The position numbers and the translations under genes were made by a program. From Patescibacteria group bacterium (GTDB lineage: Bacteria > Patescibacteriota > Microgenomatia > UBA10105 > UBA927): 64,000 bases of DNA. The DNA lies in contig DATKGN010000013.1 of the NCBI GenBank assembly GCA_035510735.1, forward strand, positions 596 through 64,595. The letters run 5' to 3'. The notes under the pieces were generated by a model that was given only the letters and a program-made list of their open reading frames with translations, did not search any database and was not told the origin of the DNA. This document shows positions 28,007 to 46,264 of this stretch, in pieces (position 1 is the stretch's first letter; every line of letters begins with the position of its first letter).

Positions 28007-28051
28007 AAATCACAGTTATGTTTTTGTAGCTGATTATAATAAATACAACAT

Positions 28052-28723
28052 TTATTTATATCCAACGCACATAAGATTTACAGACACTGAGGGAAGCATA
28101 ACGCCTAATATCCGACTTCTTATAAGTCCAATATTAAATTTGTCACCGATAGTGTGAATTGATAAAAATTTATTGACTTTTAGCTGACTCTCAAGAGTGG
28201 ATTGTGTGTAATACCGTATATGTCCAACGGATGGCAACCCGTTTGTAGTTAGATGGGGAGAATACTCTAAATATGGTGATACACCAAAAAGAAGCATCAA
28301 TCGCCGACCTATAGAAGCGACATTTGGAGTTGTTACTATCAATTTCCCTCTCTTTTTTAATAATCGATAACTTTCTTTTAATAACGCATCTGTGTCAAAT
28401 ACGTGTTCAATAATATCACCTAAGATTACGACATCGAACATGTTTTCTTTAAACGGCATCCTGCCAGATTCAATATCATGGTAATATGCCTTAATCCCGG
28501 CCTCTTTCGCCTTCAATAAATTATTTTTGACTATATCAACTCCGTATACAATATTAGAATTCGCCAGCAGCTTTTTGCTTATAAACCCATCATTACACCC
28601 CACGTCCAACACTGTCTTATGCTCTCCTGTTTCCTTAATTAAAAACTCAATTTTTTCATTATAATATCCACCAGTTTCTCTTTTATCCTCTACTACAGAA
28701 TCATAAAATAGGTCGTTTTTCAT
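28052..28723 (-). CDS. class I SAM-dependent methyltransferase
   Basis: Motif I is VLDVGCNDGFIS. The post-I acidic residue is in VYGVDI. Motif II/III is VVILGDIIEHV...LKKRGKLIVTTPN. Confidence 0.75.
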   Translation of the reverse strand: MKNDLFYDSVVEDKRETGGYYNEKIEFLIKETGEHKTVLDVGCNDGFISKKLLANSNIVYGVDIVKNNLLKAKEAGIKAYYHDIESGRMPFKENMFDVVILGDIIEHVFDTDALLKESYRLLKKRGKLIVTTPNVASIGRRLMLLFGVSPYLEYSPHLTTNGLPSVGHIRYYTQSTLESQLKVNKFLSIHTIGDKFNIGLIRSRILGVMLPSVSVNLMCVGYK

Positions 28724-28781
28724 AATAATCTGCTAAATTGCTGGATACAATACCGAATATACCAGAGATTATAACTTATTT

Positions 28782-29789
28782 CTAAAGACAATAGTTTCGT
28801 ATTTCTGAATACCCATAGGCAATCAAGCCTAAAAAACATATAATTGGATGCAGAAACCATGCCGGATCTTGAACAGTTAAATATCCTTTTACACTTAAAT
28901 ACAGCGGCTGAATAAACGTTAATGAATAGATAACATAAAGGACTAAGTTCTTCTTATCTTCGCCCGAACGTGAATCATAGACAAGATATGCGCGTTTATG
29001 TTGGGCGCCGTCAAAATCCCGTTTTTTATATTCAATACGCCGCAAAAAAAATGAAAGGATGTTAGATCCGGTATAGTGAATGATTGAATTATGAACAACG
29101 CCATACGTATTGTGCCCCAACTCTAATAATTTCATAAAAGCGTCTGTATGAAGAAAATTGGGTGATTTTCCGATAACCTTATTCAATATCTTCCTTCTTA
29201 CCATATGACCGTTGTCACCAAGGGTGGGAAGACTGCGTTTATCAAAGGACACCGTCGTATATTCTTTATTTCGATTTATCAGAATACCCTTCTTATATGT
29301 TGTTTCAAAAAGAGGCAATTTTTCCGACTTATTTAGATAGTAGACAACTGGATCATTTATCCCGAATAAAGAGCAGTACTTCGTAAAAGCGGGCATTGAA
29401 GGATCATATGCATTATGCATACTAAATGTACCTACAACCTTCTTGTTATTGAGAAAGGGTAAAACCATCTGACGCAACCAGTGTTTACCTATCATGATAT
29501 TATCGGGTTCTAAAAATAGTATTATTTCATTTTTTGCTTTTGACAGTGCCATTTTCATCCGTTTAAGGGGGTTATCTAATAGTGTTTTTTCGACGAATAC
29601 TTTAGCATTTTGTCTTCGTAGTAATTCAAGCGAACCGTTCGTAGACCCAGCATCCATTATAATATGTTCAATTTTTGAAGTGGGATAGTCCTGATCATGA
29701 AGGGCTTGCAGTGTCCTTCGCCAAATGCTTAAAGACGTATTGTAGGAAACAGTAACAATGGAAATAGAAGGATATCGCATTTGCTTCAA
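28782..29789 (-). CDS. glycosyltransferase family 2 (GT-A fold)
   Basis: Motifs include ISIVTVSYNTSLSIWRRTLQALHDQDYP and IIMDAGSTNGS. Confidence 0.7.
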   Translation of the reverse strand: MKQMRYPSISIVTVSYNTSLSIWRRTLQALHDQDYPTSKIEHIIMDAGSTNGSLELLRRQNAKVFVEKTLLDNPLKRMKMALSKAKNEIILFLEPDNIMIGKHWLRQMVLPFLNNKKVVGTFSMHNAYDPSMPAFTKYCSLFGINDPVVYYLNKSEKLPLFETTYKKGILINRNKEYTTVSFDKRSLPTLGDNGHMVRRKILNKVIGKSPNFLHTDAFMKLLELGHNTYGVVHNSIIHYTGSNILSFFLRRIEYKKRDFDGAQHKRAYLVYDSRSGEDKKNLVLYVIYSLTFIQPLYLSVKGYLTVQDPAWFLHPIICFLGLIAYGYSEIRNYCL

Positions 29790-30409
29790 ATAGTATTCAC
29801 CTTCTTCGCCAACAAAAACATGCCGTTGTTAACTGGGTAAAACCGACCATATCTGCCGAAAATTTTTGGCTCAAAGCCGAAACGCTTAACAATTGAGGTT
29901 AGCGTATTTCTAGTATAGAAGCGAATGTGCGCAGTCGTCGGGGTAAAAACCGTCTCGAAACCAATGAGTGCAATTATTAAATTTTTAATCAATCCATGAT
30001 ATGGAGTTGAGAGGAGAAGAGTTCCGTCTTTCGTGAGTAGCCGGTTAAATTCCTCAAACATTCTTTCCGTATCATAAACATGCTCAATAACATCCAGGGA
30101 TACTATGAAATCACAGCTATGAGCCGGCAGGGAAACATGCTGTTCATCATCTATCACTAATATCTTTGCCTTTGGAACGGTCTTCCCCGCAACTCTTATT
30201 GCCTCCTCTGAAATATCAGCACCATACAGGACAGCTGACGGGTTCATTTTTGAAATTAATGAAAGAATTTTGCCCTTACCACAGCCATAATCCAATATTG
30301 TCAATTTTGATTTTCGCGGAATTAAAGATATCAGGCTGGACCACTTATATGTAAAATCTTCTAACTCTGCTGGCTTTCTACGCCAATACCGTTCGTAATA
30401 TTTTTGCAT
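29786..30409 (-). CDS. class I SAM-dependent methyltransferase
   Basis: Motifs include ILDYGCGKGKILSL, LYGADISEEAI and FIVSLDVIEHVYD...LTKDGTLLLSTP. Confidence 0.75.
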   Translation of the reverse strand: MQKYYERYWRRKPAELEDFTYKWSSLISLIPRKSKLTILDYGCGKGKILSLISKMNPSAVLYGADISEEAIRVAGKTVPKAKILVIDDEQHVSLPAHSCDFIVSLDVIEHVYDTERMFEEFNRLLTKDGTLLLSTPYHGLIKNLIIALIGFETVFTPTTAHIRFYTRNTLTSIVKRFGFEPKIFGRYGRFYPVNNGMFLLAKKVNTI

Positions 30410-30508
30410 AATTCTCTACGCCTACAAAATACGATTTAATATCAAGCGTAATTATATATGAGGCCACTATGATAAGATATGTAGCATTATACAAATACGG
30501 AAGGAACA
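30410..30508. promoter_or_regulatory. divergent intergenic region (99 nt) presumed to carry promoters for the minus-strand methyltransferase/GT2 genes and the lone plus-strand GT gene
   Basis: It is the only sizeable divergent gap in the cluster. It is AT-rich, with TATA-like hexamers (gtaattatatat, cattatac) and a GGAAGG Shine-Dalgarno 7 nt before the ATG at 30509. Confidence 0.3.
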
Positions 30509-31657
30509 ATGAAACTCCCTAAAAGTATTCTCTATATTAATTTTGCCCCATATGACAACGCCGGCATGATACGCGATTATCTTATTGATCGATATTATTA
30601 CGTCTTTCACTTTTCTTTTAACTTCCACTACTTACAAGGATCCGAAAACAGCAGCTCACTTACTGTCTATAAAAAAGGCAAAAAAACTTCTAAATCATTA
30701 ATATTCCAAATATTGCCCCATCCAAAACTCACTTTCGTAATGCTACCGATACGATCCGTCGTATTTCTCATTGAAATTATTATTTATACGTATGTACTTA
30801 AAAAAAAATATGGAGAAGTTGATGATTACTTTACAGTAAATGCGTTTACGGCCTGGTGTGGATTAATTCTTAAAAAACTGAGACTCGTAAAAAGAACTAT
30901 TTTTTGGGTTTGGGACTATTACCCCCCTAAGCACAAAAGCCGAACGATCACCCTGATGCGCTGGGCATATTGGCAATTTGACAAACTTGCAACGCACTCG
31001 GATAAACTCATCTTCCTAAATCATAAACTTGAGGATTTGCGCAAAAAGATAAGGATAATTCCGTTTGGTCGTAATTATCCAATTATAGGGATTGGCACAA
31101 ACGTTTTAAAATGTAGACATCAACATAAAAATGTCTCCCTACTGTTTATTGGCGTGTTAAAACGAAGCCAAGGACTTGATTTGCTCATCGATAATTCCCA
31201 CGTCATAAAAAAACATTTTCGTGATATTGAAGTTCATATTGTAGGTAGTGGACCGGATGAAAATTACTATAAAACAAAGGCATTAGGAGCTGCGATCCCA
31301 TTTATATTTCATGGTCTTATGGACCTGTATTCCAAAAAGGCTATGGAAATTATCAAAAACACAAACATCGGTATCGCCCCTTATAAACCTGAACCTGGAA
31401 ACGTTTCTTACTATGGAGATCCGTCAAAAATTAAAAATTACCTAAGCTTTGGATTGCCCGTTATTACAACCAATGTGTTTGAATTTTCTGAAATAATCCG
31501 GACAAGCGGAGCCGGAGAAATTATTCCGTACAAATTAGAACCTTTTCTTAATAGTATTCAAAAAATTATATCAAATTATGGACAATATTCTGTTCTCGCG
31601 AGGAGTCTGGCTCAAAAATACTATTATGCTAAATACTATGACAAAATGTTTGCTTAA
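30509..31657 (+). CDS. glycosyltransferase, GT-B fold (divergent GT4-like), paralog of the 40659..41774 product
   Basis: The C-terminal segment IGIAPYKPEPGNVSYYGDPSKIKNYLSFGLPVITTNVFEFSEIIRTSGAGEII aligns by eye with VGLSIYKGASPWTWWGDSMKTREYLACGIPVIMTNACSTADDIRQKNVGFIV of the 40659..41774 protein. The N-terminal half is Rossmann-like. Confidence 0.55.
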   Translation: MKLPKSILYINFAPYDNAGMIRDYLIDRYYYVFHFSFNFHYLQGSENSSSLTVYKKGKKTSKSLIFQILPHPKLTFVMLPIRSVVFLIEIIIYTYVLKKKYGEVDDYFTVNAFTAWCGLILKKLRLVKRTIFWVWDYYPPKHKSRTITLMRWAYWQFDKLATHSDKLIFLNHKLEDLRKKIRIIPFGRNYPIIGIGTNVLKCRHQHKNVSLLFIGVLKRSQGLDLLIDNSHVIKKHFRDIEVHIVGSGPDENYYKTKALGAAIPFIFHGLMDLYSKKAMEIIKNTNIGIAPYKPEPGNVSYYGDPSKIKNYLSFGLPVITTNVFEFSEIIRTSGAGEIIPYKLEPFLNSIQKIISNYGQYSVLARSLAQKYYYAKYYDKMFA

Positions 31658-31686
31658 GACAACACACAAGCGGCAAGTGTTCAGTA

Positions 31687-32736
31687 TTACTTCGGCGGAT
31701 GAGTGATATCCTCAATAATTCGGTCTATCGAATACTCAAAATCCCATCGGGGATAATCCCTTTTAAATTTTGATACGTCTGATATATACCAGATATGATC
31801 TCCTTTACGCGGTAGACTCGCGTATTTCAATTTGGCTTTTTTACCCAGAATTACCTCAATTTTTGCTACGGCTTCCTTTATAGAAATATTTGAAAACCGA
31901 GAGCCTCCGATGTTGTACACTTCACCTTTTTTGGGTTTCTTATACACTTCAAAAAAAGCCCTGATTAAATCGTGTGAATGAATGTTATCCCTGACTTGTT
32001 TGCCCTTATACCCGATGACTGTATATGGGATCCCTTCACGGATACATTTAATCAGATATGCCAAAAAACCATGCAGCTTTGCTGCAGAGTGGTTTGGACC
32101 GGTAAGACAGCCTCCTCGAAATACAACGGTATTCATACCGAAATATTTACCGTATTCCTGAACCATCAGGTCCGCTGAACATTTGGATACGCCAAAAATA
32201 CTGTGTGTTGTCTGATCTAGACTCATCGTTTCATCAATGCCATTGTAGTACTTGTGGTTTTTTGGTAATTCAAAACGTTTTTCGAGCTCGACTAAAGGCA
32301 ATTTGTTGGGATTGTCGCCATATACCTTATTTGTCGAGGTAAAAATAAATACTGCATCTTTTGCATATTTTCTTGTCGATTCAAGAAGTAAAAGTGTTGC
32401 AACGGCATTGATGGAAAAATCCGTCAACGGCTCTCTTGCTGCCCAATCATGAGAAGGTTGGGCAGCGGCATGGATAATCATGTCAAAATGTACGGATTTG
32501 AAAAGGTCGGTAGTTTTACGCTCGTCACGAACATCAAAATTATGGTGATGATATAAAGAAAACGATTTCTCAAGCCTCTTTCGGTTCCATGTCGTATCAC
32601 CGTCAACCCCAAAAAAATATGAACGCAAGTTATTATCAATACCGTGTACCTCAAATCCCTTATCAACAAAATAGCTGACTGCTTCTGATCCAATTAAGCC
32701 GGCAGAGCCCGTAATTAATATTTTCTTATGTTTCAT
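31687..32736 (-). CDS. NAD-dependent epimerase/dehydratase (extended SDR), CDP-paratose 2-epimerase-like
   Basis: Motifs include [17 protein letters not shown] and the YxxxK in VSKCSADLM. The N-terminal architecture ...[12 protein letters not shown]...TWN resembles the tyvelose/paratose epimerase subgroup. Confidence 0.65.
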
Positions 32737-32756
32737 GCAACTATTTATGATAATAG

Positions 32757-34493
32757 CTATTGGCTAAATTGTTTTAGAGCGTCTTCTTTAAAGGATTTTG
32801 TTATATTCGTAAAAGTACTATCCCGGGTACTATAGTTCAAAGCAACAACCTGATCTATTGATATAGTGTTATTTTTAATAAGTTCTAACAACTGATTTTT
32901 GTCCCAAAAATATCCAAATCCTTTTCCCTCACTTTCCTTATAGCCCTGACTTGCCATTGTTTCTAAAAATACTTGATTAATCAAACTTTTAGGAATTTTT
33001 CCCTGATCGTAATAAAGGGTCATAATGACGTAGCCGGGGCCCAATTCTAACGGAACTTTTTGATTAAAATGCCCATAATTTCCTTCACCCCCAATATATA
33101 TAACTGGCTTATCCGGTAACGTTGGCACCATGCGAGTAAGTTGTGAAACCACATTTTTTGTATTATTCCCACGTATAACGTTCGCATAAACTTCCCGCCG
33201 GATTATAGAAATTTGTTTCACAAAAAATAGACATAGAAATAATACTGCACATATTATAAGGATCACTTTCTCGATTTTACGTTTCGTAAAGACTTGAATG
33301 AATTGAAAAAGCGAATAAAAAATGGAGCCGAAGATAATTGAGGCGGGAACCGCGATAGCGTACAGATATCTTGACTCCATATATGACGCATTCTTCCATG
33401 GAAGAAATGCAGCAATCGGCATAAAATTCAAAATATATAAGACACCGAGCACAAGAGCGGTTTTACGCTTTATAACCCCTCTGAAAAGAGAATAGGCAAA
33501 TAGAAATATCAAAACGAACGATAAAATAACAGCGATAAAATCCGATGCCATTAAGTCATACACTACATTCGGATCAGTAACATACACCATCGTAACTGGA
33601 TAATTAATTCTTACAAACCACGGAACTATTTTATACATAAACCTGTAGGGTATAAGGAATTGAGACAAAGAGGCCAATGGATACATAATGATGTTATTGG
33701 AAAAATGCATCCAGAGGGGAATTTTTACGATTGCAACTGCATTAATACCCGGACTACCATAATAACCAATAACTCTACTAACCGCCGTCACAATCATGAT
33801 GATTGCCTGACATATATGGAGTTTTACAAAAGTGATCAGTTTCCGTTTTCCGGAATAGAATATGACAAATAAAATCGGCAGTAATATAAATGTATACATT
33901 GTCGAATCTTTGAATAGAAATGCAGTATAAGCGCACAACCAGGAGACAATAAATTGATAGCCTTTCTCAGTACGCATATATTCGATAAAAATATTTAGGG
34001 ACAATAAAACGAAAAATGTCGAAATCAGAACTTGCACAGGGTTGGTAAGTTCTGAAAGTGCTTGATGTGATACGCTGCATGTCAAAAAGAATCCCCACGA
34101 AATGAGAGATATCCAAGTATTGGAAGTTAATTTTTTCGATATTTTATATACTAATAAGGAATTTATCGGATGGAAAATGAATGCGATTATGGCAAAAGGC
34201 CATGGGTTTAAGGGAAAATAACGGAAGAATATATTGTTTATAACAGTTCCAAACACCCTCCCGTTCCCCATGAGTATATCCAAAAGGCTAAACGATTGGA
34301 GTGATGCATATAATCCGTTAACCTTAACTATCCCGAGTTGCGCCCATTCGTCATTTAAATAATACAGCTTCGAAATATTCCAATAGGAAAATAATGTGAC
34401 AAATAATGACACTGTCGTAATAATGATATCCTGTGGAATCCTTGCAAGAAAAGAAAATAATTTTCTAAATTGTTTTTGTTTCATAATAGACAA
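32757..34493 (-). CDS. GT-C-like polytopic membrane protein, family A (paralog 1 of 3), with a C-terminal extracytoplasmic domain
   Basis: The product is 578 aa. The first loop has an acidic motif YYLNDEW. There are about 11-13 TM helices. The C-terminal soluble domain carries the family signature [43 protein letters not shown]. Confidence 0.6.
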
Positions 34494-34498
34494 AGTCT

Positions 34499-36238
34499 TC
34501 AGTATTCACGTAATGAATCTTTTAGAAACAATTGAACCTCTTGAGTGTCATCTTTAAGTGTTCCGGTTGCGCCATCATAATAAAATCCGACGACCTGATT
34601 TATCGAAAGTTTTGGATTACTTTTCAATAACTCTATCAAATGTGATTCTTGCGTATAAAATCCATAGGCTTTATTACCTACTAGCCGATATCCCTCTCCA
34701 TGATCAAAATGATACGGTTCTAAAATGAGCTCTCCCGGTATTTTACCTGTTTTATAGTAGCGAACCATAAGTGCATATCCGGGATTAAGTAATACAGGAA
34801 TAAATTGATCAACTTCCCCAAAATATGTATTATTACCCGTTAATAAAATAATGGGCTTGTCCGGCAAGTTCGGCCTTATTGCAATAAATTGGTCCATGGC
34901 GGTTTTCATCGGCTGATTATACTCAACTCCTGCTATAACATCACGCTTCATCACAACGGCCTGTTTATATATATACCCGCATCCGACAAAACAAATAATT
35001 AAAAATGCTATAAATTCAAATCGAACAATGCTTTTCATGAGATTCTTTATACCGATGAGTAATAATGAGAAAAAGATAGCTCCGCTGGGCAACAATACAT
35101 AATAATATCGGGATTCAAAATACGCTTTACCTTTCGGCGCGTCATAAAGGGCCAAAGGTACATGCTGTAAAAAATAGTACAAAACAGCGAAGAATAAGAG
35201 TGTACGGTATTTTTTTATAGGAAGCACAAGAAAATATATAGCTACAATAAGCACGACGGTTATCATAAATGATAAATAGTCGGCGATGATGTAGTAATTC
35301 AGGACGGTTTCCCCGACATCCGAAAATACTTTCGGTATAAATTGATACTGGAAATGGTAAAAAAATATCGACAGTTTAATCATGTAATCATACGGTATAT
35401 AAAAATGGGCAAGACTTGTCAGTGGGTAGTAAATCAAATGAAATGCGATTCTTGCTATAGATGGATGGGTTTGCTGTGCAAATGTCGGATGTCCGTGAAT
35501 CACATAAAACGTTAATATCCGTAAAAATCCGATACCACAAAATAACAAAATAGGGATCAAATTATTTTTTACCGTTAGCAATAATTTATCCGATCGTTTT
35601 TTCCCATACATCCAATCGAACCAAAAAAACAACACAAGCACTACAATTGAAGTTTCCTTGAAATAGTATGCAAGTAATAAACAAATCCAACTCGACACTT
35701 TCAAACTAGTATTAACCGGACGCTTATAGTCAAAACGGATAAGATAAAGCCATATCGCAAGCAAAGAAAAAAATAACGCAAATAAACTCTCGTATGTTGC
35801 TCCAATCCACGTAAATACCTGGGAATCCACACTGCAGGTAATAAAAAATAGGCCACTGAAAAATGCCAAAAATTTTGATTTCGAAATTTTCTTCACAATG
35901 AGGTAAAGCAATATTGCATTAAGAAGATGAACAACATCAGATGCGATTGCAAACGGTAAAGCACTGAAAGGCGCTACATACAATGATATATTCGTCAGAA
36001 GCAGCGCTAAAAAACGGGCTTTCCCCGAAATTATTTCCATCGGAGTTAACAGTTTCAATTCACCTAACGGACCATAAATATAAACAGCACCAAGCAATTT
36101 CCATTCGTCAAAAACATAATAGAGATTCGGCAACAGTCTGAACATGAAGCGGATAAGAAGGAGCGCAGCCGAAATAAAAATAAGTCCGTATTTGTGTGAC
36201 CAGCAAAACGCACGAATGCGCCTGATAATTTTATTCAT
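34499..36238 (-). CDS. GT-C-like polytopic membrane protein, family A (paralog 2 of 3)
   Basis: The product is 579 aa. It has the first-loop motif YYVFDEW and the C-terminal signature LPDKPIILLTGNNTYFGEVDQFIPVLLNPGYALMVRYYKTGKIP. Confidence 0.6.
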   Translation of the reverse strand: MNKIIRRIRAFCWSHKYGLIFISAALLLIRFMFRLLPNLYYVFDEWKLLGAVYIYGPLGELKLLTPMEIISGKARFLALLLTNISLYVAPFSALPFAIASDVVHLLNAILLYLIVKKISKSKFLAFFSGLFFITCSVDSQVFTWIGATYESLFALFFSLLAIWLYLIRFDYKRPVNTSLKVSSWICLLLAYYFKETSIVVLVLFFWFDWMYGKKRSDKLLLTVKNNLIPILLFCGIGFLRILTFYVIHGHPTFAQQTHPSIARIAFHLIYYPLTSLAHFYIPYDYMIKLSIFFYHFQYQFIPKVFSDVGETVLNYYIIADYLSFMITVVLIVAIYFLVLPIKKYRTLLFFAVLYYFLQHVPLALYDAPKGKAYFESRYYYVLLPSGAIFFSLLLIGIKNLMKSIVRFEFIAFLIICFVGCGYIYKQAVVMKRDVIAGVEYNQPMKTAMDQFIAIRPNLPDKPIILLTGNNTYFGEVDQFIPVLLNPGYALMVRYYKTGKIPGELILEPYHFDHGEGYRLVGNKAYGFYTQESHLIELLKSNPKLSINQVVGFYYDGATGTLKDDTQEVQLFLKDSLREY

Positions 36239-36247
36239 TCGTTTCCT

Positions 36248-36991
36248 CTACCGTTTTACGGCAATAATTCCAATATCTCTTGATAAAGACGTTTTGAGTG
36301 ATGCAAGACAGTCAATCGCATCATACATCGCTTTTAATACTTTTGGTAAATTCCAGGATAACGGCAATCCAAAGGACTCTTCAATCGTAAAACCGGACGC
36401 CTCGATCAAATCGGTAAGTGCAGGGAGATTAAAAACCCGTACATGACCCATCGCCTCCGGCTCACGCATAAGGTTTCGAAGAATTCTCGTACCGTACACT
36501 TTTGAAATATCGCTGACTTCCAAAAATAACGGATATTCCCCGAACAGAAAAAGGATCCGGTTAAACCAAAAGGATAAATTCGGCGTGATGATAACCATCC
36601 GGCCGCCCTTCTTTAATACCCGCTTTGATTCGCCAAGAAGAACATCTGTTTTTACAATATGTTCGATGAGCTGATCTGAAATCACCAGATCGAATGTGTT
36701 GTTTTCGAAAGGAACCGTTTTATTGAGATCAGCTTTCTTGACGATGATTCCGTGAGCACGGGCAGTTTTTATACCGCTGTCTGATACTTCAATGCCATAG
36801 ACCGTCGCTCCGCATAGTTTCGAAAGCTCATGGGAAAATCTTCCGTTGCCGCACCCCAATTCGAGGATTTTTTTCGGTTTCCATGCAAGAATATATCTCT
36901 TTAAAAAGGCGATACGCGCATCCACAAACTGCTTATTGAAATCAAAATCTTCTTCTTTATATGTATATGCTCTCCCTAATATTGTATCCAT
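36248..36991 (-). CDS. class I SAM-dependent methyltransferase
   Basis: Motifs include ILELGCGNGRFSHEL, VYGIEVSDSGI and LVISDQLIEHI...LKKGGRMVIITPN. Confidence 0.75.
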   Translation of the reverse strand: MDTILGRAYTYKEEDFDFNKQFVDARIAFLKRYILAWKPKKILELGCGNGRFSHELSKLCGATVYGIEVSDSGIKTARAHGIIVKKADLNKTVPFENNTFDLVISDQLIEHIVKTDVLLGESKRVLKKGGRMVIITPNLSFWFNRILFLFGEYPLFLEVSDISKVYGTRILRNLMREPEAMGHVRVFNLPALTDLIEASGFTIEESFGLPLSWNLPKVLKAMYDAIDCLASLKTSLSRDIGIIAVKR

Positions 36992-36996
36992 AAGCT

Positions 36997-37977
36997 CTAA
37001 ATAGTTTTTGACAATAACACCCTTCCCTCTTTGTTTGTGATAAATGATCCAATGATTACATTTGTCGTCATGATATTAAAGGGCAGCTCGTATAATCCAG
37101 CTGGATCACGGTAACGCAGTGACTTATAGAAACCGACTATGATTGACGGCATGATAGTATAACAATACATAAGCCAAAGGAATAGTTTAATAAACTCACT
37201 TCTTTTCGACCAATCTATCCACGTCCAATACCGTTTATTCGGTTGATTAAAATACATGGTTTCCAGATTTCTCTTCCTCTTACGAACAAGATTGGATAAC
37301 GTCGTTAAAAAAGGATGATGAATTCCGATATCGGGAACATATGCATATGAAGTCCTGCCGTTTTCCACCATAATGACCATCGTATCCAATTCCATATATT
37401 TTTTCATTTCGGCAACAGCCGTTGTTAGTAATTCTTTCCGTCTGTAAAGACAGAAACTCGCTGGCAGAATTTTCCCCTTCCGATATTCGGTTATCCAATA
37501 CTCTTTGTATTTTTTTGTAATACAGCTGGACGTCGAGGGCGTAAGAAAACAAAAAAGCGGATCGCGCTGGATGGGGTCAAACGTAATGTATCGGTTAAGC
37601 GGCGCATCGCCGGGCAAACTCACGAATCTGGTCCATGAACCGACGATTTCTGTATCTTTTTCAAGCGGACTAACCATTTTTTCAAACCAATGGTCACCCA
37701 CGAGACCCATATCACAGTCCAGGATCATAAAATATTTTCCCGTCGACTTCATAAGCGCTATCTTTTTCCCGTACTCTGCTTCTCTGAGTGGATTACGAAG
37801 AATAGTTACGGGGAAACGTTTCGCTATTTTGACCGTATCGTCCGTTGAACCGCCGTCAACGATAAACACTTCCAATTTTCCCTGGTATTTCTGATGAAAT
37901 ATGGAGTTCAAACAATGCTCAATATGGTCATGCTCATTGAGCGTAGGTATCGCTATGGATATTGAAGGAAACACCAT
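36997..37977 (-). CDS. glycosyltransferase family 2 (GT-A fold)
   Basis: Motifs include ISIAIPTLNEHDHIEHCLNSIFHQKY, VFIVDGGSTDDT and a DxD-like ILDCDM. Confidence 0.7.
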   Translation of the reverse strand: MVFPSISIAIPTLNEHDHIEHCLNSIFHQKYQGKLEVFIVDGGSTDDTVKIAKRFPVTILRNPLREAEYGKKIALMKSTGKYFMILDCDMGLVGDHWFEKMVSPLEKDTEIVGSWTRFVSLPGDAPLNRYITFDPIQRDPLFCFLTPSTSSCITKKYKEYWITEYRKGKILPASFCLYRRKELLTTAVAEMKKYMELDTMVIMVENGRTSYAYVPDIGIHHPFLTTLSNLVRKRKRNLETMYFNQPNKRYWTWIDWSKRSEFIKLFLWLMYCYTIMPSIIVGFYKSLRYRDPAGLYELPFNIMTTNVIIGSFITNKEGRVLLSKTI

Positions 37978-37981
37978 ATGT

Positions 37982-38974
37982 CTAGCGTACCATATGGTCC
38001 GTAAGGAGTCCGTTCAAAAAACCCCAACCGTATGCCATATGTGTCAATATGACGCCAAGAGAGGCAAGTAGCGATCCAAATACATTAGTTTTTCCCGAAA
38101 CGCTGCCGTACGCCATGGAATAAAAAATTAGGAATACTAGTCCAAAAATCAACCGGGCTGGCAGAGAGATGATGCTCATCATTACAAGTAGCCAGAACCC
38201 AATCGTCAATAACAAGGGTAAACAATAAAATAAACTTCGCGAAGTCTCCGGATATCGCTTAAAAAAATACCCACGGTGGACACCAACATTTGAAATTTGA
38301 CGGAGATATTGCGAGAATAACGGCCGGCGGTGATGATACACAACTACATCGGGATCGTAGAGCATTTTACCGTACTTCAGAAGTTTCAAACATACGAACG
38401 TGTCTTCTCCGCCATAAAACGTACTTTCCCATCCGCCGACACTTTTAAGGACATTTGTTTTAATAAATAAATTATATGCCGGCCAATCGGTCATATACTG
38501 ACGTTTTTGATGAGCATTTGTAAACCGGAATTTCAATTTTCCGCTTGTAAGGTCTGACTCATAAACAATTCCGCTTATTTGAGCCAAATATGGATCTTCA
38601 GGGGGAGTCACTCCGGGGCCACCCAGAGCAACGATAACGGGATATGTTCGAAAAAGTTCAATAGCCTGGGTTAGCCAAGTCGGATCTGGATACGCATCGT
38701 CATCTATATAGGCACATATCTCTCCCTTTGCATGGCGAAGAGCGATATCCCGTTTTTCTGCGGGACCGGTGGTATGACCTGCTTTCGTCACAATCAGCCG
38801 GATATTTTTGACTTTTGGTAACTGTATTTTTTTATCACAAATAACTAGTATTTCATAATTTGGATAGGTTAAAAGATCAAATTTCCTGAGATCCTCACTG
38901 AACCGTGCTGATACGATATACGCAGGGATGACAATGGAAACGAGCGGTTTTTTTGATAATTTCGGTATTTTCAT
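37982..38974 (-). CDS. glycosyltransferase family 2 with C-terminal TM helices
   Basis: Motifs include VSIVIPAYIVSARFSEDLRKFDLLTYPNYEILVICD and a DxD-like YIDDDAY. A hydrophobic C-terminal segment of about 80 aa with 2-3 TM follows. Confidence 0.7.
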   Translation of the reverse strand: MKIPKLSKKPLVSIVIPAYIVSARFSEDLRKFDLLTYPNYEILVICDKKIQLPKVKNIRLIVTKAGHTTGPAEKRDIALRHAKGEICAYIDDDAYPDPTWLTQAIELFRTYPVIVALGGPGVTPPEDPYLAQISGIVYESDLTSGKLKFRFTNAHQKRQYMTDWPAYNLFIKTNVLKSVGGWESTFYGGEDTFVCLKLLKYGKMLYDPDVVVYHHRRPLFSQYLRQISNVGVHRGYFFKRYPETSRSLFYCLPLLLTIGFWLLVMMSIISLPARLIFGLVFLIFYSMAYGSVSGKTNVFGSLLASLGVILTHMAYGWGFLNGLLTDHMVR

Positions 38975-40662
38975 AATGACTTCGTCCTGTTGTTGCGGAT
39001 ATACTCACGGATTTGGGGGCTTATGTCAAGAAGCAACCGGTCGTTGGATTTGTAATAGAACGCAACAATCTGATTTTCGGATAACTTAGGATTCTGTTTA
39101 AATAAATTCAAGAGATCATTTTTATCCCAGTAATACCCAAATCCTTTCCCTTTTACTTCACGATATCCCTGATCCCGTATTTCCCACAAAAAGTCGTTCT
39201 GAAAAAACTCTCTTGGAACAACCCCCGTCGGGTAATACCAGATCATCAACGTATACCCCGGTCCTTGTTCGAGAGGGACTTTCACATTCGTCAATCCGTA
39301 ATATCCATTGCTATCGCCTGTGATATACACGATCGGCTTATTGGGAAGCGTCGGATACAGGTAGGTAAATTGCTTAAGCAATTGTACTCTTTCCGCCGAA
39401 ACGCTCGCCAGTTGAGCAACGTTGCGCCGTATGAGACGAACGTTAACAAATATATAGAAACACAAAATAATTCCCATTGAAAAAAGAGCATATCGATAAA
39501 TCTTAGAATATTTCTTCAGCCTATCTGCAATGCCGGTAAGTACCGCGCTAAGCAACAATGCCCCTCCCGCGCTGCCAAGATAAAAATATCGAGAATCCAG
39601 ATACGCGCCACCTCTGCGAAGAATAATATAGGGTAAGAAACTAAGACCAATGAATATCAATGCGTACAAAATAATTTTACCAACCCTCTTAACCATGTAC
39701 GCAACGACCACAGACACAACTATAACGATAAGAGAAAAATACAAGGAAAGTACATCAGCGGTCATATTATCCCTGATCGATGAAGCCATAAAATTCCCAT
39801 TAATAAATGGATACATCGCTGACTGGAACAATGTTGCAAATTTGTAGAGGTAGACATCCGGAATGAATATTTGGGAAATTGATACAACAGGATAAAATAA
39901 CGCGTTGAACAGTATCTTTTCCTTCATGAACGGAGTATTTGCCTCGAAAGCTGCAGAGTTGGCCGGTATCCGTAGATAGTTAACTAGAACCACAGATAAA
40001 CAGAACACTAAATAGACCCCAATGGGCCAAAATATTTTAAAGATTTTCATGATGGTCACCTTATTTTTAGATAAATTAATAAAGAGTAAGGGAAGTATGA
40101 CAAACACAATCACTCCACTCTCTTTAAATAGGTAGGCTACAACCGCAGAAACCTGGGACAGAATTAAATAATGCCGCTTATTCGATTCCATAAACTGCAG
40201 CAGAAGAAGAATCGATACGAAAACAAACGTTGCCGAGGGCAGCGTCGTAGTATTGGCAGCAAACCACGTGACTGCCTGAATCGGTGTATACAGGCATATA
40301 AATATAATTGATGCGAGATATGACAACATAGTATTTTTACTTAGTTTTTGGACTACGAAATAGAGCAACAACGCATTGAAAAAATTAACAACGATGGAAA
40401 ATAAGGCGAAAGGAAAACCCTGATACGTAAAATACCGATAAAATATGAAATTAAAGATCGATCCGAGTATCCTCCCAGATCCGGCTAGAATACTTATGAT
40501 AGAAAACTTGCCGAGAAACCTTGTGCTTCCGTATGCAATAACATCTCCAACCCCAACCCATTCGTCCTGTTGATAAAATAAATGGAAAAGCCTGCTATAA
40601 ATAAACCCAGAAAGAAATATCAAAAGTAGTATTATAATTATCCACTTAAATGATTTCATCAT
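38971..40662 (-). CDS. GT-C-like polytopic membrane protein, family A (paralog 3 of 3)
   Basis: The product is 563 aa. It has the first-loop motif FYQQDEW and the C-terminal signature LPNKPIVYITGDSNGYYGLTNVKVPLEQGPGYTLMIWYYPTGVVP. Confidence 0.6.
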   Translation of the reverse strand: MMKSFKWIIIILLLIFLSGFIYSRLFHLFYQQDEWVGVGDVIAYGSTRFLGKFSIISILAGSGRILGSIFNFIFYRYFTYQGFPFALFSIVVNFFNALLLYFVVQKLSKNTMLSYLASIIFICLYTPIQAVTWFAANTTTLPSATFVFVSILLLLQFMESNKRHYLILSQVSAVVAYLFKESGVIVFVILPLLFINLSKNKVTIMKIFKIFWPIGVYLVFCLSVVLVNYLRIPANSAAFEANTPFMKEKILFNALFYPVVSISQIFIPDVYLYKFATLFQSAMYPFINGNFMASSIRDNMTADVLSLYFSLIVIVVSVVVAYMVKRVGKIILYALIFIGLSFLPYIILRRGGAYLDSRYFYLGSAGGALLLSAVLTGIADRLKKYSKIYRYALFSMGIILCFYIFVNVRLIRRNVAQLASVSAERVQLLKQFTYLYPTLPNKPIVYITGDSNGYYGLTNVKVPLEQGPGYTLMIWYYPTGVVPREFFQNDFLWEIRDQGYREVKGKGFGYYWDKNDLLNLFKQNPKLSENQIVAFYYKSNDRLLLDISPQIREYIRNNRTKSL

Positions 40663-41774
40663 AAAAATTTCGACTCTAACATTCTATAAATGTATGAATA
40701 ATCGGAAAATGTTTTCGCGTTCTTTCGCATTACCTTCAAAACTTTCATATTTTTATTCAATAGTAATATCTTCTTCGCAATGTCATTAGGATCCGGTTTA
40801 ACGATAAACCCGACATTTTTTTGACGAATATCGTCTGCAGTCGAACACGCATTCGTCATAATAACAGGTATTCCGCAGGCAAGATACTCCCTTGTTTTCA
40901 TTGAATCACCCCACCATGTCCATGGCGATGCGCCTTTATAAATCGACAGTCCGACAAGGCTTCTGGATATCACCTTCATGACGTCCTTATGGAGCATCGC
41001 ACCAGCAAAGTGGACGTACTTATCCAACCCCAATGCTTTAACATCAGCGCGTAATTCATTTTCGTCCTTTCCGGATCCGATGATCGCCAGATTCATTTTA
41101 CTATTCTTCTTAGTTACAAATGACATCGCCCGGATTGTTGCGTCAAAATCAATATTTTCCTTCGATAAAGTAGAAACCAATATAACAGAATTATTATCCT
41201 TTCGTGTATTGAGATTGTGTAGTCTCATGAGAGGTATATTGGGAACAAAATAATTTCGGTTCTCACTTACTCCCTGACTTTTTCTTAGTTTCACCATACG
41301 AGAGGACACATTCCATACCTCATCGCAATATCGAAGGCAGGTTCGATCGATTGCATGATAAATGGAATTTGTTATAGGATTCTGAAATCTCTGCAGGGCG
41401 TAGTCAGCAGTATAAAAAATAACTATTTTCGTTAACCCTAACCGTCGCAGCAGTATTCCGTATAATGCGTTAAGCGGATCGACTCCAATAAAATAGTCCG
41501 GTATAGTTCGTGTATTTCTTAGAGAACGATAGGTAATAATAAAGTCCTGAAATACCCGAATTACTAATGGCAATCTGCTAAATCCGAGGATTTTTACATG
41601 TTGTGATTTGCCGTCAAAATATTCAATTCTTGAACGGGATCCGAAATAGAGCGGATGTTTTATAAACATAAACAGCCGCTTATGCTGTTCCATAAACGAA
41701 GCCAGAATCTCTCCCGTACCGTGACCGGGCTTACCATCGGAAGAATATTGGATATGGCTTGCAATGACTAACAT
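40659..41774 (-). CDS. glycosyltransferase, GT-B fold (divergent GT4-like), paralog of the plus-strand 30509..31657 product
   Basis: The C-terminal domain reads LAIIGSGKDENELRADVKALGLDKYVHFAGAM...ACGIPVIMTNACSTADDIRQKNVGFIV. Confidence 0.55.
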   Translation of the reverse strand: MLVIASHIQYSSDGKPGHGTGEILASFMEQHKRLFMFIKHPLYFGSRSRIEYFDGKSQHVKILGFSRLPLVIRVFQDFIITYRSLRNTRTIPDYFIGVDPLNALYGILLRRLGLTKIVIFYTADYALQRFQNPITNSIYHAIDRTCLRYCDEVWNVSSRMVKLRKSQGVSENRNYFVPNIPLMRLHNLNTRKDNNSVILVSTLSKENIDFDATIRAMSFVTKKNSKMNLAIIGSGKDENELRADVKALGLDKYVHFAGAMLHKDVMKVISRSLVGLSIYKGASPWTWWGDSMKTREYLACGIPVIMTNACSTADDIRQKNVGFIVKPDPNDIAKKILLLNKNMKVLKVMRKNAKTFSDYSYIYRMLESKFL

Positions 41775-41775
41775 A

Positions 41776-42567
41776 TTATTTTGTCAGTGAGATATGAAAC
41801 CGAGTGGCGAAACGCTCATCTGGGTAAATATCGATAACGTAACCGATAAGATTCGTCACGGGAAAAATAATCAGTGAAGAAACTGTATAAAGGGGCTTTA
41901 CGACAATATTTGCTTCGACAATTCTACGGATGAGCCATTGATTAATGATCGAAGCAACGGTAGTCCCCCCGGTATTCACATATATGTCAATTTTATTAAA
42001 TCGCAGAGTCTTTTTTATATGATAAAAAAAACCAAAAGAATACCTAAAGTAATCCATTGTATGATCCGGTTCACCTCCGTGCATTCGATAAAGATAGGGT
42101 ACGGATATCACTGCTTTACCACCATTTTTTAAAACTCTCTTAGCTTCTGAAAAATATTGAACGGGGTCGGCTACATGTTCAAGCACCTCATAGCTTATAT
42201 GATAATCGAACGTGCTTGATTTAAACGGAAGCTGCAACGCGTCACATGTTTTATCCAAAGTAATTCTTTTTTGCCGGTCAATCAAGATTCCTAAGTAGGG
42301 AAAACGGGTCAGGAACGTATCCAGCTTACCAAATTCACCGTCCCACGTCGTGTGATCAGTGGCTATATATTTAACAATTTTCTTATATTTAGCGATCGCT
42401 TCAAGTTTTCGTTTCCCGTTTCCGGCGCCGACTTCAAGAACAACACCGTGTATTCCCTTCAATATATGATCGTTCGCTTGCCTCATTTTCAGGTCATGCA
42501 GCCAATGCGGATAAAACGGCGTCAGGAGTAGCGCGGAAAATATACTCATATTAGGTATAGAGCTCAT
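41776..42567 (-). CDS. class I SAM-dependent methyltransferase
   Basis: Motif I is VLEVGAGNGKRKLE and the downstream segment is YHISYEVLEHVADP...LKNGGKAVISVP. An alternative start 18 nt downstream (MSIFSALL) would remove the overlap with the upstream gene. Confidence 0.7.
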   Translation of the reverse strand: MSSIPNMSIFSALLLTPFYPHWLHDLKMRQANDHILKGIHGVVLEVGAGNGKRKLEAIAKYKKIVKYIATDHTTWDGEFGKLDTFLTRFPYLGILIDRQKRITLDKTCDALQLPFKSSTFDYHISYEVLEHVADPVQYFSEAKRVLKNGGKAVISVPYLYRMHGGEPDHTMDYFRYSFGFFYHIKKTLRFNKIDIYVNTGGTTVASIINQWLIRRIVEANIVVKPLYTVSSLIIFPVTNLIGYVIDIYPDERFATRFHISLTK

Positions 42568-43366
42568 CTAATACTTGAGGAATGCGGTCTTTGAAGGAAA
42601 TACCCAAATTCTTCCTCATCTCTGACGTATTAAGGAGCAAATTATCTTCTGAACCTATAGCCGTATTGAATACGAGGGATGAGGTTCGATGTGATTTAAA
42701 AGCTTTTGCTAATTCGAGAATCGAATACGATTTCGCGGAAGCGATATTAAAAATGTTGCTTTTATCATATGTAATACACCGGATTATCGCTTCACATGCA
42801 TCATGTACTTCCAAAAAATCTCTTTTTTGTTTACCCGAGCCGTTAACCGTAATGGTTCCGGATTCCGTTTGCTGTTTAAACTCATAAAAAACTCCCTTAT
42901 TTGAGTCTTTCCCGTATATGTTTGGAAAACGTAAGATGATCGACTGAATATTACATGTGCCTCGGTAATACTCCACGACCGATTCTGCAATTTTCTTAGA
43001 CAATCCGTACGCGCTTATTGGCCGTAATACATCATCTTCTTTAGACAATCTGTTTGTACGGTTACCATAAACTGCACCTGATGATGAAAAGATAACTTTG
43101 TTTAACGAATATTGCGTGCCTATTGCAAGCATTGTCTGAAGGGTTTGTACATTAACGGAAAAAGCTTCTTTTCTATCATTCGTAAATTTGCCGATAAGGA
43201 AGATTAATACACTGGGCTTTTGTACTTTAAAGAATGATGTTACGTCTTTTTCACGTAACGCATTCCCGGTAAACGAAACGTAGGCGATATTCCGATCGTC
43301 AAGCAAACGACAAAGATGAGAACCTATAAATCCTTTCGACCCAGCCACTCCAACTATTGCATTCAT
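42551..43366 (-). CDS. NAD(P)-dependent sugar epimerase/reductase (short SDR; dTDP-4-dehydrorhamnose reductase-like size)
   Basis: Motifs include VGVAGSKGFIGSHL (GxxGxxG) and YGLSKKIAE (YxxxK). At 271 aa it is too short for a 4,6-dehydratase. Its position just downstream of a PseB/CapD-like dehydratase suggests a 4-keto reductase or epimerase partner. Confidence 0.6.
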   Translation of the reverse strand: MNAIVGVAGSKGFIGSHLCRLLDDRNIAYVSFTGNALREKDVTSFFKVQKPSVLIFLIGKFTNDRKEAFSVNVQTLQTMLAIGTQYSLNKVIFSSSGAVYGNRTNRLSKEDDVLRPISAYGLSKKIAESVVEYYRGTCNIQSIILRFPNIYGKDSNKGVFYEFKQQTESGTITVNGSGKQKRDFLEVHDACEAIIRCITYDKSNIFNIASAKSYSILELAKAFKSHRTSSLVFNTAIGSEDNLLLNTSEMRKNLGISFKDRIPQVLDELYT

Positions 43367-43372
43367 AGATGA

Positions 43373-44404
43373 TCACTGAAAAAGCCATGATTCTTTTTTC
43401 AATAACTTTTCAAAGTCGTAATTATTAAGTCGTGTCGTGGTTTTTGATGAAAATTCATCTCCAACAAATTTTTTGTTTTTCCCATAAAAACGCAACAATT
43501 CTTTTTTGTTTAATTGCGGAAGAAGAACATAACATTTTTCTGAAAAAACGTAGGCACTATCCGACTCATTTTTGGAAATTAAAACTTCGTGTTTCTTTTC
43601 TCCCGGACGACCGCCAATAACTTTTATCCGGCTGCCTTTATTGCCGAACAGTTTGATCATCACGGAAGCGATCGTCTCTATGGTTGCCGCCGGCATGTTC
43701 ATAACAAACGTTTCTCCGCCGACTGATTGCTCTATCGAAGTAAAAATCAATCCTATCGCTTCTTTCGTATTCATAAGAAATCTGGTCATCGTTGGATCCG
43801 TAATAGTGATTTCATTGTGCAGTTGAAGTTGTTTTTTAAATAGCGGAATAACACTTCCGTTTGTCCCCAAAACATTACCACCCCGTATACAAATAAATTT
43901 TGTTTTATGACTATTTATATGTGAATAATTAACGTTTGCATTAATCATGAGTTTTTCACCACACGCTTTCGTTATCCCGTAAATATTGAGAGGTTCGACG
44001 GCTTTATCCGTAGATACGTCAATCACTTTTTCAATTTTATTCTCTATTGCAGTTTCAATGACGTTTTGCGCACCATAGATATTGGTTAAAACGGCTTCCC
44101 ATGGGTTGTTTTCACATACCGGGACATGTTTGAGAGCAGCAAGGTGAAAGAGCACGTGAGACCCTAACATAGATAACCGGAGGATATTTTTATCGCGGAC
44201 ATCACCGATGATAAATTTGATTTTTGGACTATTTTGAAACTCTTCCTTCATCTCCACCTGTTTATGTTCCCCTCTTGAGTATATCCGTACCTCTTTCACT
44301 TTTGGGTAACGGTCAATGATTTGCCTGACAAGTTCATGACCCCAGGATCCGGTTCCACCGGTAACAAATACCACTTTTCCATCGAGCGAATATGTTTGTT
44401 TCAT
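43373..44404 (-). CDS. UDP-N-acetylglucosamine 4,6-dehydratase family (PseB/FlaA1/CapD-like polysaccharide biosynthesis protein)
   Basis: The N-terminus GKVVFVTGGTGSWGHELVRQII matches the PseB/CapD KxxxTGGTGSFG signature. The overall length of 343 aa also fits. Confidence 0.75.
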   Translation of the reverse strand: MKQTYSLDGKVVFVTGGTGSWGHELVRQIIDRYPKVKEVRIYSRGEHKQVEMKEEFQNSPKIKFIIGDVRDKNILRLSMLGSHVLFHLAALKHVPVCENNPWEAVLTNIYGAQNVIETAIENKIEKVIDVSTDKAVEPLNIYGITKACGEKLMINANVNYSHINSHKTKFICIRGGNVLGTNGSVIPLFKKQLQLHNEITITDPTMTRFLMNTKEAIGLIFTSIEQSVGGETFVMNMPAATIETIASVMIKLFGNKGSRIKVIGGRPGEKKHEVLISKNESDSAYVFSEKCYVLLPQLNKKELLRFYGKNKKFVGDEFSSKTTTRLNNYDFEKLLKKESWLFQ

Positions 44405-44405
44405 G

Positions 44406-45425
44406 TTAAATATATGTAATAAATTCCCTCAAAAATATCGCTAAGCCGATATTACGCCATATTATATGCCAAAACACGCGATCATTCACACTGCGAATTG
44501 TCGTCTGTATATATTTTCTTTTCCGTAACGTACTGCTCATATTCCTGATATTCCATAAAATAGCTTTCACTATACTCCATGATGTTTTATATCGGCTGGT
44601 CACTAACAATGCAAAAGTCACACCTACACAAAAAAATAAATGCACCGGTAATATGAGCATCAAATGATATAAACCGACATTTTTGCAATATGAATTAATT
44701 CTGTTTTTAAATGAATGATACTGAACAAAAGCATTGTTCATGCCGCTACTCGTTGCCCCCATTTTATGATAGACAACCGATTTATATGCATAGACAATTC
44801 GGTGCCCAGAGAGCCAAACGCGGTGGCACATATCGGTTTCTTCAAAATAAGCAAAATAATCGGGATCAAGAATCCACCCGTCAACTTCAATCTTCTGTAA
44901 CACGTCCTTCTTAAATATCATACAGGCGCCCTTGGCGGTATACAGATCTATTTGTTTATTGTATTTCGGACTATCTTTTTGACGGAATCCGTAGTGATAG
45001 AGAAAACCGGTCGGTGTTAAGAATGCCCCCACCGAATCAAGACGTGTGTGGTCATCCATAAGGAGCAGCTTGCCCTGAGCGCCGCCAATCGAAGGATCGC
45101 TTTCAAGTACGTTGACGAACTCCTCAAGAAATGTCGGGGTTGTTTCCGTATCGTTATTAAGAAACAAAATATAGTCACCCTTTGCTTGTTTATATCCGAT
45201 GTTATTTGCATGGGAAAACCCGAGGTTCTTTTCATTAACGATGATTTTTGTTTTCGGGTAATGCGCTTTGGTCCACGCAACGGACCTGTCAGTCGACGCA
45301 TTGTCAACGAGAATCCATTGTGTGTTTTTATATGTCTGCCTGGCAAGCGTCGGGAAACAACCTTTGAGCCAATTAAGACCGTTCCAATTGACGATAATGA
45401 TAGAAATGAGCTTCTGTTTCCTCAT
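44406..45425 (-). CDS. glycosyltransferase family 2 with a C-terminal membrane segment
   Basis: Motifs include ISIIIVNWNGLNWLKGCFPTLARQTY, ILVDNASTDRS, YILFLNNDT and a DxD-like FEETDMCHR. A C-terminal hydrophobic region follows. Confidence 0.8.
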   Translation of the reverse strand: MRKQKLISIIIVNWNGLNWLKGCFPTLARQTYKNTQWILVDNASTDRSVAWTKAHYPKTKIIVNEKNLGFSHANNIGYKQAKGDYILFLNNDTETTPTFLEEFVNVLESDPSIGGAQGKLLLMDDHTRLDSVGAFLTPTGFLYHYGFRQKDSPKYNKQIDLYTAKGACMIFKKDVLQKIEVDGWILDPDYFAYFEETDMCHRVWLSGHRIVYAYKSVVYHKMGATSSGMNNAFVQYHSFKNRINSYCKNVGLYHLMLILPVHLFFCVGVTFALLVTSRYKTSWSIVKAILWNIRNMSSTLRKRKYIQTTIRSVNDRVFWHIIWRNIGLAIFLREFITYI

Positions 45426-45439
45426 ACCGGTATTTTATG

Positions 45440-46264
45440 TTATACGAGTATAGCAGACACATAGCCACACGCTATGGCGACCATCTCTGACGTCTTCATG
45501 AAGAGCATGCCGAGCCCCACCACGGGGTCTCGGAATAATTTTAATGGATTAGAAAAAAATATGATGTAACGATTGAGTATACTGGCCTGTTTGATAAGAT
45601 ATTGCGAATTTTCTTTTTTGGCTTTATAACGATCCATCTTCTTACCATAATAATATTTTTTCCGCATGGTGCCAATGAGTGATAGCTTGCCTTCATTATG
45701 ACGGATATGTGCGGATACTCTTCCTATTGATTGATCTCCATGCAGCTCTTTAACTCGCTGCGGGAGATCATAATCTTCAGGACCCGTGATTGACTCATCA
45801 TAGCCTTCCAACGCCTCAAATATATCTTTACGGAAAAAACGGGCAGCCTCAATATAATCGACCTTCAGATAGAAACTACGCTCCAGAGCCTTACACGTAG
45901 CCCAGAACCCGACTCCGAATGATTCTTCTGGTATCACCACAGCGAGTTTCCTTTTTTCCTCAGAAATCATAACGCATTCTTTAATAACCCGGGGAGTTAA
46001 TTCCATGTCAGCATCAAGAAACAGAAGATATGTACCCGTTGCTTTACCGGCTCCGAAATTGCGCTGCGCTGACCGCTCGGGCCCTTTATCGAAGAACTTA
46101 GCAGTATACCGTTTCGCTATACTCTTCGTTGCATCGGTCGAATTATTGTCAATGACAATTATTTCGATATCATTATAAGATTGCCGCTTAATACTATTGA
46201 GACATGCTTCAATATTTTTTTCCTCATTCCGGGTCGTAATAATAACCGATACTGCCGTATTCAT
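45440..46264 (-). CDS. glycosyltransferase family 2
   Basis: Motifs include VSVIITTRNEEKNIEACLNSIKRQSY, IIVIDNNSTDAT and LLFLDADME (DxD). The start was set to the internal ATG at 46264 (MNTAVSV), leaving a 4-nt gap to the upstream gene. The track ORF extends to 46330. Confidence 0.8.
   Translation of the reverse strand: MNTAVSVIITTRNEEKNIEACLNSIKRQSYNDIEIIVIDNNSTDATKSIAKRYTAKFFDKGPERSAQRNFGAGKATGTYLLFLDADMELTPRVIKECVMISEEKRKLAVVIPEESFGVGFWATCKALERSFYLKVDYIEAARFFRKDIFEALEGYDESITGPEDYDLPQRVKELHGDQSIGRVSAHIRHNEGKLSLIGTMRKKYYYGKKMDRYKAKKENSQYLIKQASILNRYIIFFSNPLKLFRDPVVGLGMLFMKTSEMVAIACGYVSAILV

Follow-up and report, generated by a model that had tools for sequence, protein, structure and literature searches.

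The stretch of DNA analysed here (the window) comprises 64,000 nucleotides of contig DATKGN010000013.1 from a Patescibacteria group bacterium of the Microgenomatia (assembly GCA_035510735.1, forward-strand positions 596 to 64,595). Positions 4990..63727 form a single co-directional glycan cluster of ~58 kb on the minus strand, within which three intact open reading frames (ORFs) encode the paralogous membrane proteins studied here; we name each by its lower coordinate. ORF 38971 (38971..40662, minus strand) encodes 563 amino acids (aa), with a predicted 11-helix transmembrane (TM) core of the glycosyltransferase C (GT-C) type followed by a predicted extracytoplasmic C-terminal alpha/beta domain. 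ORF 34499 (34499..36238, minus strand; 579 aa, identical to the public protein P0183) is the most divergent of the three. The start of ORF 32757 (32757..34493, minus strand) is ambiguous: TTG 34493, 5 nt past the upstream stop, gives 578 aa, and ATG 34484, three codons downstream, gives 575 aa and is used in the public gene call for the identical protein P0108.

BLASTP aligned the three proteins near full length at 27–31% pairwise identity, with E values from about 1e-63 to 1e-79 (5e-79, and 4e-70 and 6e-63 for 34499 against its two siblings); no other window protein matched any of them at E ≤ 1e-3. This confirmed a likeness far above chance and upheld the original prediction, made from the DNA letters and ORF translations, of a full-length paralogous trio. 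Their three-way alignment contains 86 invariant columns, including the D-E-W of the first loop and a C-terminal LP.KP...PGY..M..YY..G..P block, two of the shared features on which that grouping had been based. The DEW codons lie on the minus strand at 40558..40566 in 38971 (D33-E34-W35), 36101..36109 in 34499 (D44-E45-W46) and 34344..34352 in 32757 (D48-E49-W50, numbered from the TTG start). The C-terminal domain is encoded, on the same strand, at 38974..39354 in 38971 (residues ~437–563, carrying the LPNKP...PGY...YY...GFGYY block), 34502..34873 in 34499 (residues ~456–579) and 32760..33131 in 32757 (residues ~455–578).

Searching 5.8 billion proteins, we found 66 homologues of 38971, nearly all unnamed; the few named ones were 'hypothetical protein' entries from Candidatus Levybacteria and Gottesmanbacteria. 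When the family profile was run exhaustively against 1.84 billion cluster representatives, 730 were recovered at E ≤ 1e-30, giving a family size of at least 730 clusters at 50% identity, and nearly all of the best 150 of these 730 matched approximately the whole profile, C-terminal domain included. In an alignment of 69 sequences, numbered here by the 38971 protein, D33, E34, W35, R358, G469 and G509 were invariant, and Q31, Q32, G39, H93, W133, F179, E181, P191, P258, Y361 and a run of C-terminal positions were at least 90% conserved. Pfam matched 38971 to PMT_2 at 24.2 bits, below the cutoff of 26.1, and found nothing in 32757 or 34499; NCBIfam matched none of the three. Among the 69 aligned members, however, 24 reached PMT_2 (PF13231) at E ≤ 0.01 (best 1.4e-12), and one reached PMT (PF02366). 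On these matches, the membrane core is a divergent offshoot of the PMT_2/ArnT-type clan rather than a clean member of it. The 69-sequence profile matched no chain among PDB sequences even at E ≤ 10.

Within the window, hhalign of the family profile against the GT-C-like proteins 46269, 60384, 58731 and 25736 gave probabilities below 2%; the three proteins thus constitute a separate family there. The only distant match in the window is the 1,002-aa product of 12445..15453 (minus strand; hmmsearch E 1.4e-12). Residues 518–930 of that protein match the membrane-domain profile, it has no Pfam hit and its N-terminal ~500 aa are unexplained. Proteins of 1,010–1,181 aa were also seen near family members at the related loci L010, L021/L022 and L030.

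At the level of three-dimensional fold, the modelled polytopic membrane core matched solved GT-C enzymes. Those listed with values were Pmt4 (20.0), Pmt2 (18.5), STT3B (18.4), ALG12 (18.0), AglB (15.8), ALG9 (15.8), AftA (15.7), PglB (15.0), AftD (14.9) and ArnT (14.2), and Pmt1, ALG3, PIGU, AftB, GPI-MT-I, ALG6, DPY19, PimE and EmbA were also among them. PMT, ArnT, AftD and PglB, the enzymes proposed for comparison at the outset, are all represented. On this structural comparison we confidently predict that the three window proteins are GT-C-fold glycosyltransferases, GT-C_A-like and of PMT/ArnT type. A transporter or permease reading, the non-GT-C fold named beforehand as the alternative, was rejected, as matches to the major facilitator superfamily reached TM-scores of only ~0.1.

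We built a topology model from the helices of the structure model and hydropathy; it has 11 TM helices, with the N terminus inside and the C terminus outside. In it, H62–77 lies at the membrane interface as part of external loop 1, and the helices of H246–283 do so within the large external loop. The external stretch joining TM7 to TM8 is just ~60 aa long, and the last TM helix runs on as a ~25-residue stalk into the C-terminal domain. A positive-inside analysis of the 69 sequences gave a K+R density of 0.34 in predicted cytoplasmic loops compared with 0.063 in external loops. Of the 11–13 TM helices first claimed, it is therefore the count of 11, N-in and C-out, that fits the charge bias. The model places DEW, Q129/W133, K180/E181, Y257/P258, R358 and the C-terminal domain on the outer side. 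GT-C enzymes conserve one or more acidic residues, as DxD, modified DxD or DE, in their first extracytoplasmic loop, which follows TM1 (PMC8035078), and this GT-C_A-type hallmark is supplied by DEW in 69/69 members. In 38971 the motif lies 7 residues past TM1, where the first external loop starts in the topology model, and we propose that it is the catalytic or donor-binding site.

An alignment of 47 sequences of the ~130-aa C-terminal domain, used without the membrane core, gave a confident model of a small alpha/beta unit, with a predicted local distance difference test (pLDDT) value of 96.0 and a predicted template modelling (pTM) score of 0.90. Pfam gave no consistent match across the 47 domains; the 14 families that appeared were each matched by one domain only, no better than chance (E ≥ 0.027). 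The domain profile retrieved only chance-level haemagglutinin matches among PDB sequences (E 0.24), and the modelled domain had no structural relative among solved structures and no match to the domains of oligosaccharyltransferases (OSTs). Nor is it a recognised carbohydrate-binding module (CBM). Searching with the domain by itself recovered nothing but pieces of full-length genes, and we rejected apparent stand-alone copies as evidence for an independent domain: all were short fragments from very short contigs or from the broken assembly L031. In L031 (ENA ERZ1286166 contig_6016), gene calling has fragmented the region into numerous ORFs of 40–200 aa, and all that is left of the family member is the 195-aa C-terminal fragment P0208, a pattern suggestive of long-read assembly with indel errors. 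Because no Pfam match, PDB relative or stand-alone copy emerged, the domain is, as far as these searches reach, specific to this GT-C family, consistent with the initial impression that it belongs to no named family.

Conserved positions in the C-terminal domain are rich in aromatic residues and glycine (PFQQGxGYTLM, YY, QGY, GFGYF), a composition compatible with sugar binding. Three of the 69 aligned sequences extend beyond the C-terminal domain with an additional F5/8 type C (NedA-like, galactose-binding) domain, which fits with an extracellular C terminus and a carbohydrate acceptor. Other family members of ~695 aa were also found in database listings.

The three copies had originally been read as products of repeated module duplication. 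Tree and synteny show that they are not recent duplicates. Both 32757 and 38971 score clearly higher against proteins of other genomes than against their window siblings (the nearest relative of 32757 is P0178, at 38% identity), and for 34499 the margin is slight (240 versus 228 bits). A neighbour-joining tree of 210 members with 100 bootstraps recovered a clade B (90/100), containing 32757, 34499, L008_10793, L003_8271, P0158, P0175, P0178 and P0189, and a separate clade A of 41 members, among them 38971, L008_3901 and P0028. ORF 34499 is basal in clade B, and it was the exclusive sister of 32757 in 0/100 bootstraps. Gene order at L008 reproduces that of the window: A, GT2 (glycosyltransferase family 2; E 1e-138), GT2, methyltransferase, B. 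Clade-A and clade-B genes stand in tandem at L003, L027 and L028 and as an A–B–B trio at L029, and at L030 a clade-B gene occurs alone within ±9 kb. B is accompanied by A in 6 of the 7 loci examined, whereas A is often found alone. Because L008 shares the order of the window, A and B are in tandem elsewhere and 32757 and 34499 are never exclusive sisters, the arrangement is inherited and old, with two old subfamilies, A (38971) and B (32757 and 34499). A recent tandem duplication in this genome was rejected. The clade-B window proteins differ at near-invariant positions (the QQ before DEW, W133 to E, E181 to D, R425 to T or M, Q465 to E or L), substitutions that are consistent with functional divergence.

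Related loci were located in GTDB representative genomes using a 16-sequence alignment. Hosts are Levy-, Davies-, Blackburn-, Gottesman- and Woesebacteria, other Microgenomates and metagenome-assembled genomes (MAGs) labelled 'Patescibacteria group'; all named family members come from Microgenomates. Several MAGs assembled as third-party annotation, in the set L005, L008, L010, L017, L019, L022 and L023, bear the title 'uncultured Gammaproteobacteria/Pseudomonadales bacterium'. The taxonomy in these titles looks wrong, because the L005 protein is 81% identical to one from Levybacteria.

At every locus examined, the family sits in a glycan-biosynthesis cluster with GT2 and GT4 glycosyltransferases, NDP-sugar epimerases/dehydratases, aminotransferases, acetyltransferases and methyltransferases. 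Immediately upstream of the clade-A gene in the window is a GT4 gene (40659..41774, minus strand; Pfam Glycos_transf_1), an order that recurs in L001, L005, L006 and L020. The clade-A gene is followed by a membrane-anchored GT2 of 330 aa (37982..38974, minus strand; Pfam Glycos_transf_2 and Glyco_trans_2_3; two C-terminal hydrophobic segments), the start of which overlaps the stop of 38971. It is a candidate polyprenyl-phosphate-sugar synthase, and a GT2 occupies the same position in L001, L005, L006 and L008. The order GT4, family member, membrane GT2 is thereby common to the window, L001, L005 and L006. A second membrane-anchored GT2 of 326 aa (36997..37977, minus strand; Pfam Glycos_transf_2; C-terminal hydrophobic segment) is a paralogue of 28782..29789 and weakly matches the archaeal dolichyl-phosphate-mannose (Dol-P-Man) synthase 5mlz (E 7e-4). 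All three nearby GT2 proteins (37982, 36997 and 28782) carry C-terminal hydrophobic segments; their sequences are generic and yield no specific assignment as GtrB- or CsbB-type enzymes, and only 36997 is weakly Dol-P-Man synthase-like. An S-adenosylmethionine-dependent methyltransferase (36248..36991, minus strand; Pfam Methyltransf_11, _23 and _31) lies immediately upstream of the clade-B pair, an adjacency that recurs in L008 (E 2e-58).

The ~58-kb cluster as a whole contains ~11 GT2 and ~8 GT4 genes, 4 methyltransferases, 6 epimerase-type genes and ~13 large polytopic proteins that are GT-C-like (11012, 12445, 20910, 22781, 25736, 32757, 34499, 38971, 46269, 53564, 58731, 60384 and 62027). 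It includes a priming Bac_transf phosphoglycosyltransferase (4990..5628) and a Wzx-like protein (49487..50746) that scores just below the Polysacc_synt cutoff (27.8 versus 28.2 bits). The window holds no ORF for a GtrA-type flippase and no intergenic room for one, and Rfam and tRNA scans of it were empty.

Two further GT-C-like paralogue pairs on the minus strand, 53564..55192/58731..60377 (30% identity, E 5e-61) and 60384..62030/62027..63727 (35%, E 9e-96), show weak matches to PMT_2, PTPS_related and YfhO and are unrelated in sequence to the trio. Accessory genes also form paralogue sets, namely the methyltransferases 28052/29786/36248/41776, the GT2 genes 28782/36997 and the GT4 genes 30509/40659, which fall in 28052..30409, 36248..37977, 40659..42567 and 30509..31657; the cluster looks like reiterated methyltransferase–GT2–GT4–GT-C modules. 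The GT4 gene 30509..31657 is the sole plus-strand gene of at least 150 aa in the window, and its orthologues in L011, L016 and L020 are likewise inverted relative to the family member. G+C content falls to 0.35–0.37 over 28001..36000, compared with 0.42–0.46 at the window ends; the trough spans both clade-B genes and the adjoining methyltransferase/GT2/GT4 module, and this portion of the cluster may be variable or acquired. The 198-aa product of 18051..18647 (minus strand) has only the N-terminal Glyco_transf_4 half, matches the N terminus of the GT4 protein 7846..8964 and lies immediately before the full GT4 gene 16900..18054, and could be a split or truncated GT4. In the ENA metagenome contig L029, the A–B–B trio (5608..10680) is followed at 13165..15257 by Wzm/Wzt-type genes (ABC2_membrane; ABC_tran plus Wzt_C), a hint that some genomes use an ABC-transporter-dependent pathway to make the acceptor glycan.

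In multi-component transmembrane glycosylation, polyprenyl phosphate is charged with a sugar by a membrane-linked GT-A enzyme and carried across the membrane by a flippase; a GT-C enzyme then delivers the sugar to the glycan on the outside (PMC8035078, PMC11127046). This scheme fits the present family, which has the GT-C fold, an invariant acidic pair and Arg and Lys residues on the external side, membrane-anchored GT2 neighbours and a glycan-cluster context. The most likely function, in which we place good though not full confidence, is therefore extracytoplasmic sugar transfer from a polyprenyl-phosphate donor. Fold, topology and context partly support the earlier suggestion that each paralogue possibly adds a different polyprenyl-phosphate-linked sugar on the outer face; what we infer about catalytic activity, donor type, acceptor and the part played by the C-terminal domain is as follows. 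A membrane-anchored GT2 of the cluster would load the sugar onto polyprenyl phosphate at the cytoplasmic face, and the lipid-linked sugar would be flipped across the membrane. The GT-C protein, acting as an inverting enzyme, would then transfer it to a glycan (or glycoprotein) of the cell surface that this cluster produces. The DE pair might serve as base, as cation ligand or as both, R358 together with K180 might bind the phosphate, and the C-terminal domain, rich in aromatic residues and Gly, might help to hold the acceptor. A and B could perform successive or different additions, or form a heteromeric pair. A stronger version, in which A and B are an obligate heteromeric GT-C enzyme analogous to Pmt1–Pmt2, with the C-terminal domain as a previously unseen acceptor-recognition fold and the whole as a new CAZy GT-C family that builds the glycan or glycoprotein coat on the surface of Microgenomates cells, we regard as doubtful.

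Two other GT-C activities deserve weighing against this reading. An OST- or ligase-type enzyme would not add single sugars but would move a whole polyprenyl-diphosphate-linked oligosaccharide en bloc to a protein or wall acceptor, after the Bac_transf primer had started it and the Wzx-like protein had flipped it. STT3, PglB and AglB are top Foldseek matches and the diphosphate-linked pathway is present in the cluster; nevertheless, this activity is unlikely, as the WWD(Y/W)G motif that STT3, PglB and AglB (GT66) carry in their C-terminal external domain is missing here (WWDYG in 0/69, WWD absent in 69/69). The external domain of the window family is also much smaller and structurally unrelated, and no Pfam STT3 match was found. 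Strict PMT-type protein O-glycosylation, in which polyprenyl-phosphate-hexose would be transferred to Ser/Thr of secreted, pilin or S-layer proteins by an A–B heterodimer like yeast Pmt1–Pmt2, draws on enzymes (CAZy GT39, Pmt1/Pmt2/Pmt4, and PMT_2) that are alike in work and fold but share only 7–10% sequence identity with the family, two of the three window proteins lacking a PMT_2 match and the third falling below cutoff. Eukaryote-type PMTs have a MIR domain in the large external loop, whereas none of the 69 members has one and the ~130-aa C-terminal domain is present instead; PF02366, as noted, is matched by a single member. A heterodimer also sits poorly with clade-A members that commonly stand alone and with the solitary clade-B gene of L030. 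Moreover, the clusters are of polysaccharide type, with a primer, a Wzx-like gene and, in L029, Wzm/Wzt, rather than specific to protein glycosylation, and the galactose-binding-type domain of some members points to a glycan acceptor. On balance, we consider strict protein O-glycosylation quite improbable. That the proteins are non-catalytic, either scaffold or substrate-presenting subunits like PIGU/GAB1, which share the GT-C fold, or transporters or permeases, is very improbable given the invariant motif.

The proposed extracytoplasmic transfer of a single sugar by this family also needs to be set apart from known systems of that kind. ArnT (GT83), GtrC-type proteins, GtlB, YfhO, GacL and the GT136 enzyme ORF12 are the obvious comparators, but the family has no sequence match to ArnT or to any solved GT-C enzyme; it further differs from ArnT/GtrC-type systems in the lack of a GtrA-type flippase gene in the window, in a C-terminal domain that is no recognised CBM and in its two co-travelling subfamilies. 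The mycobacterial AftA, AftB, AftD and Emb enzymes (GT85, GT89, GT53 and others) are much larger, have a different external domain, show no sequence similarity and come from a phylum other than the candidate phyla radiation (CPR)/Microgenomates.

A literature search for GT-C enzymes in CPR, Patescibacteria or Microgenomates yielded no reports, nor did we find a description of this family, which is an unannotated, CPR-centred GT-C family whose database names are all 'hypothetical protein'. General understanding of GT-C enzymes is unchanged by it, and the result is useful to the specialist rather than startling. The external domain, which has no structural relatives, is a candidate acceptor-binding module, and the A/B pair of the family offers a defined case in which to probe bacterial GT-C heteromers. 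Placement in CAZy is a further prospect for the family. Demonstrated activity would probably entitle it to a CAZy GT family of its own, for which GT136 is a precedent (PMC11127046). CPR/Patescibacteria have tiny genomes, are mostly uncultured and possess poorly understood envelopes, and ~58 kb with ~13 GT-C-like polytopic proteins is a very large outlay for a CPR genome of presumably ~1 Mb. The GT-C fold together with the invariant DEW motif gives a testable function to at least 730 clusters hitherto labelled 'hypothetical'.

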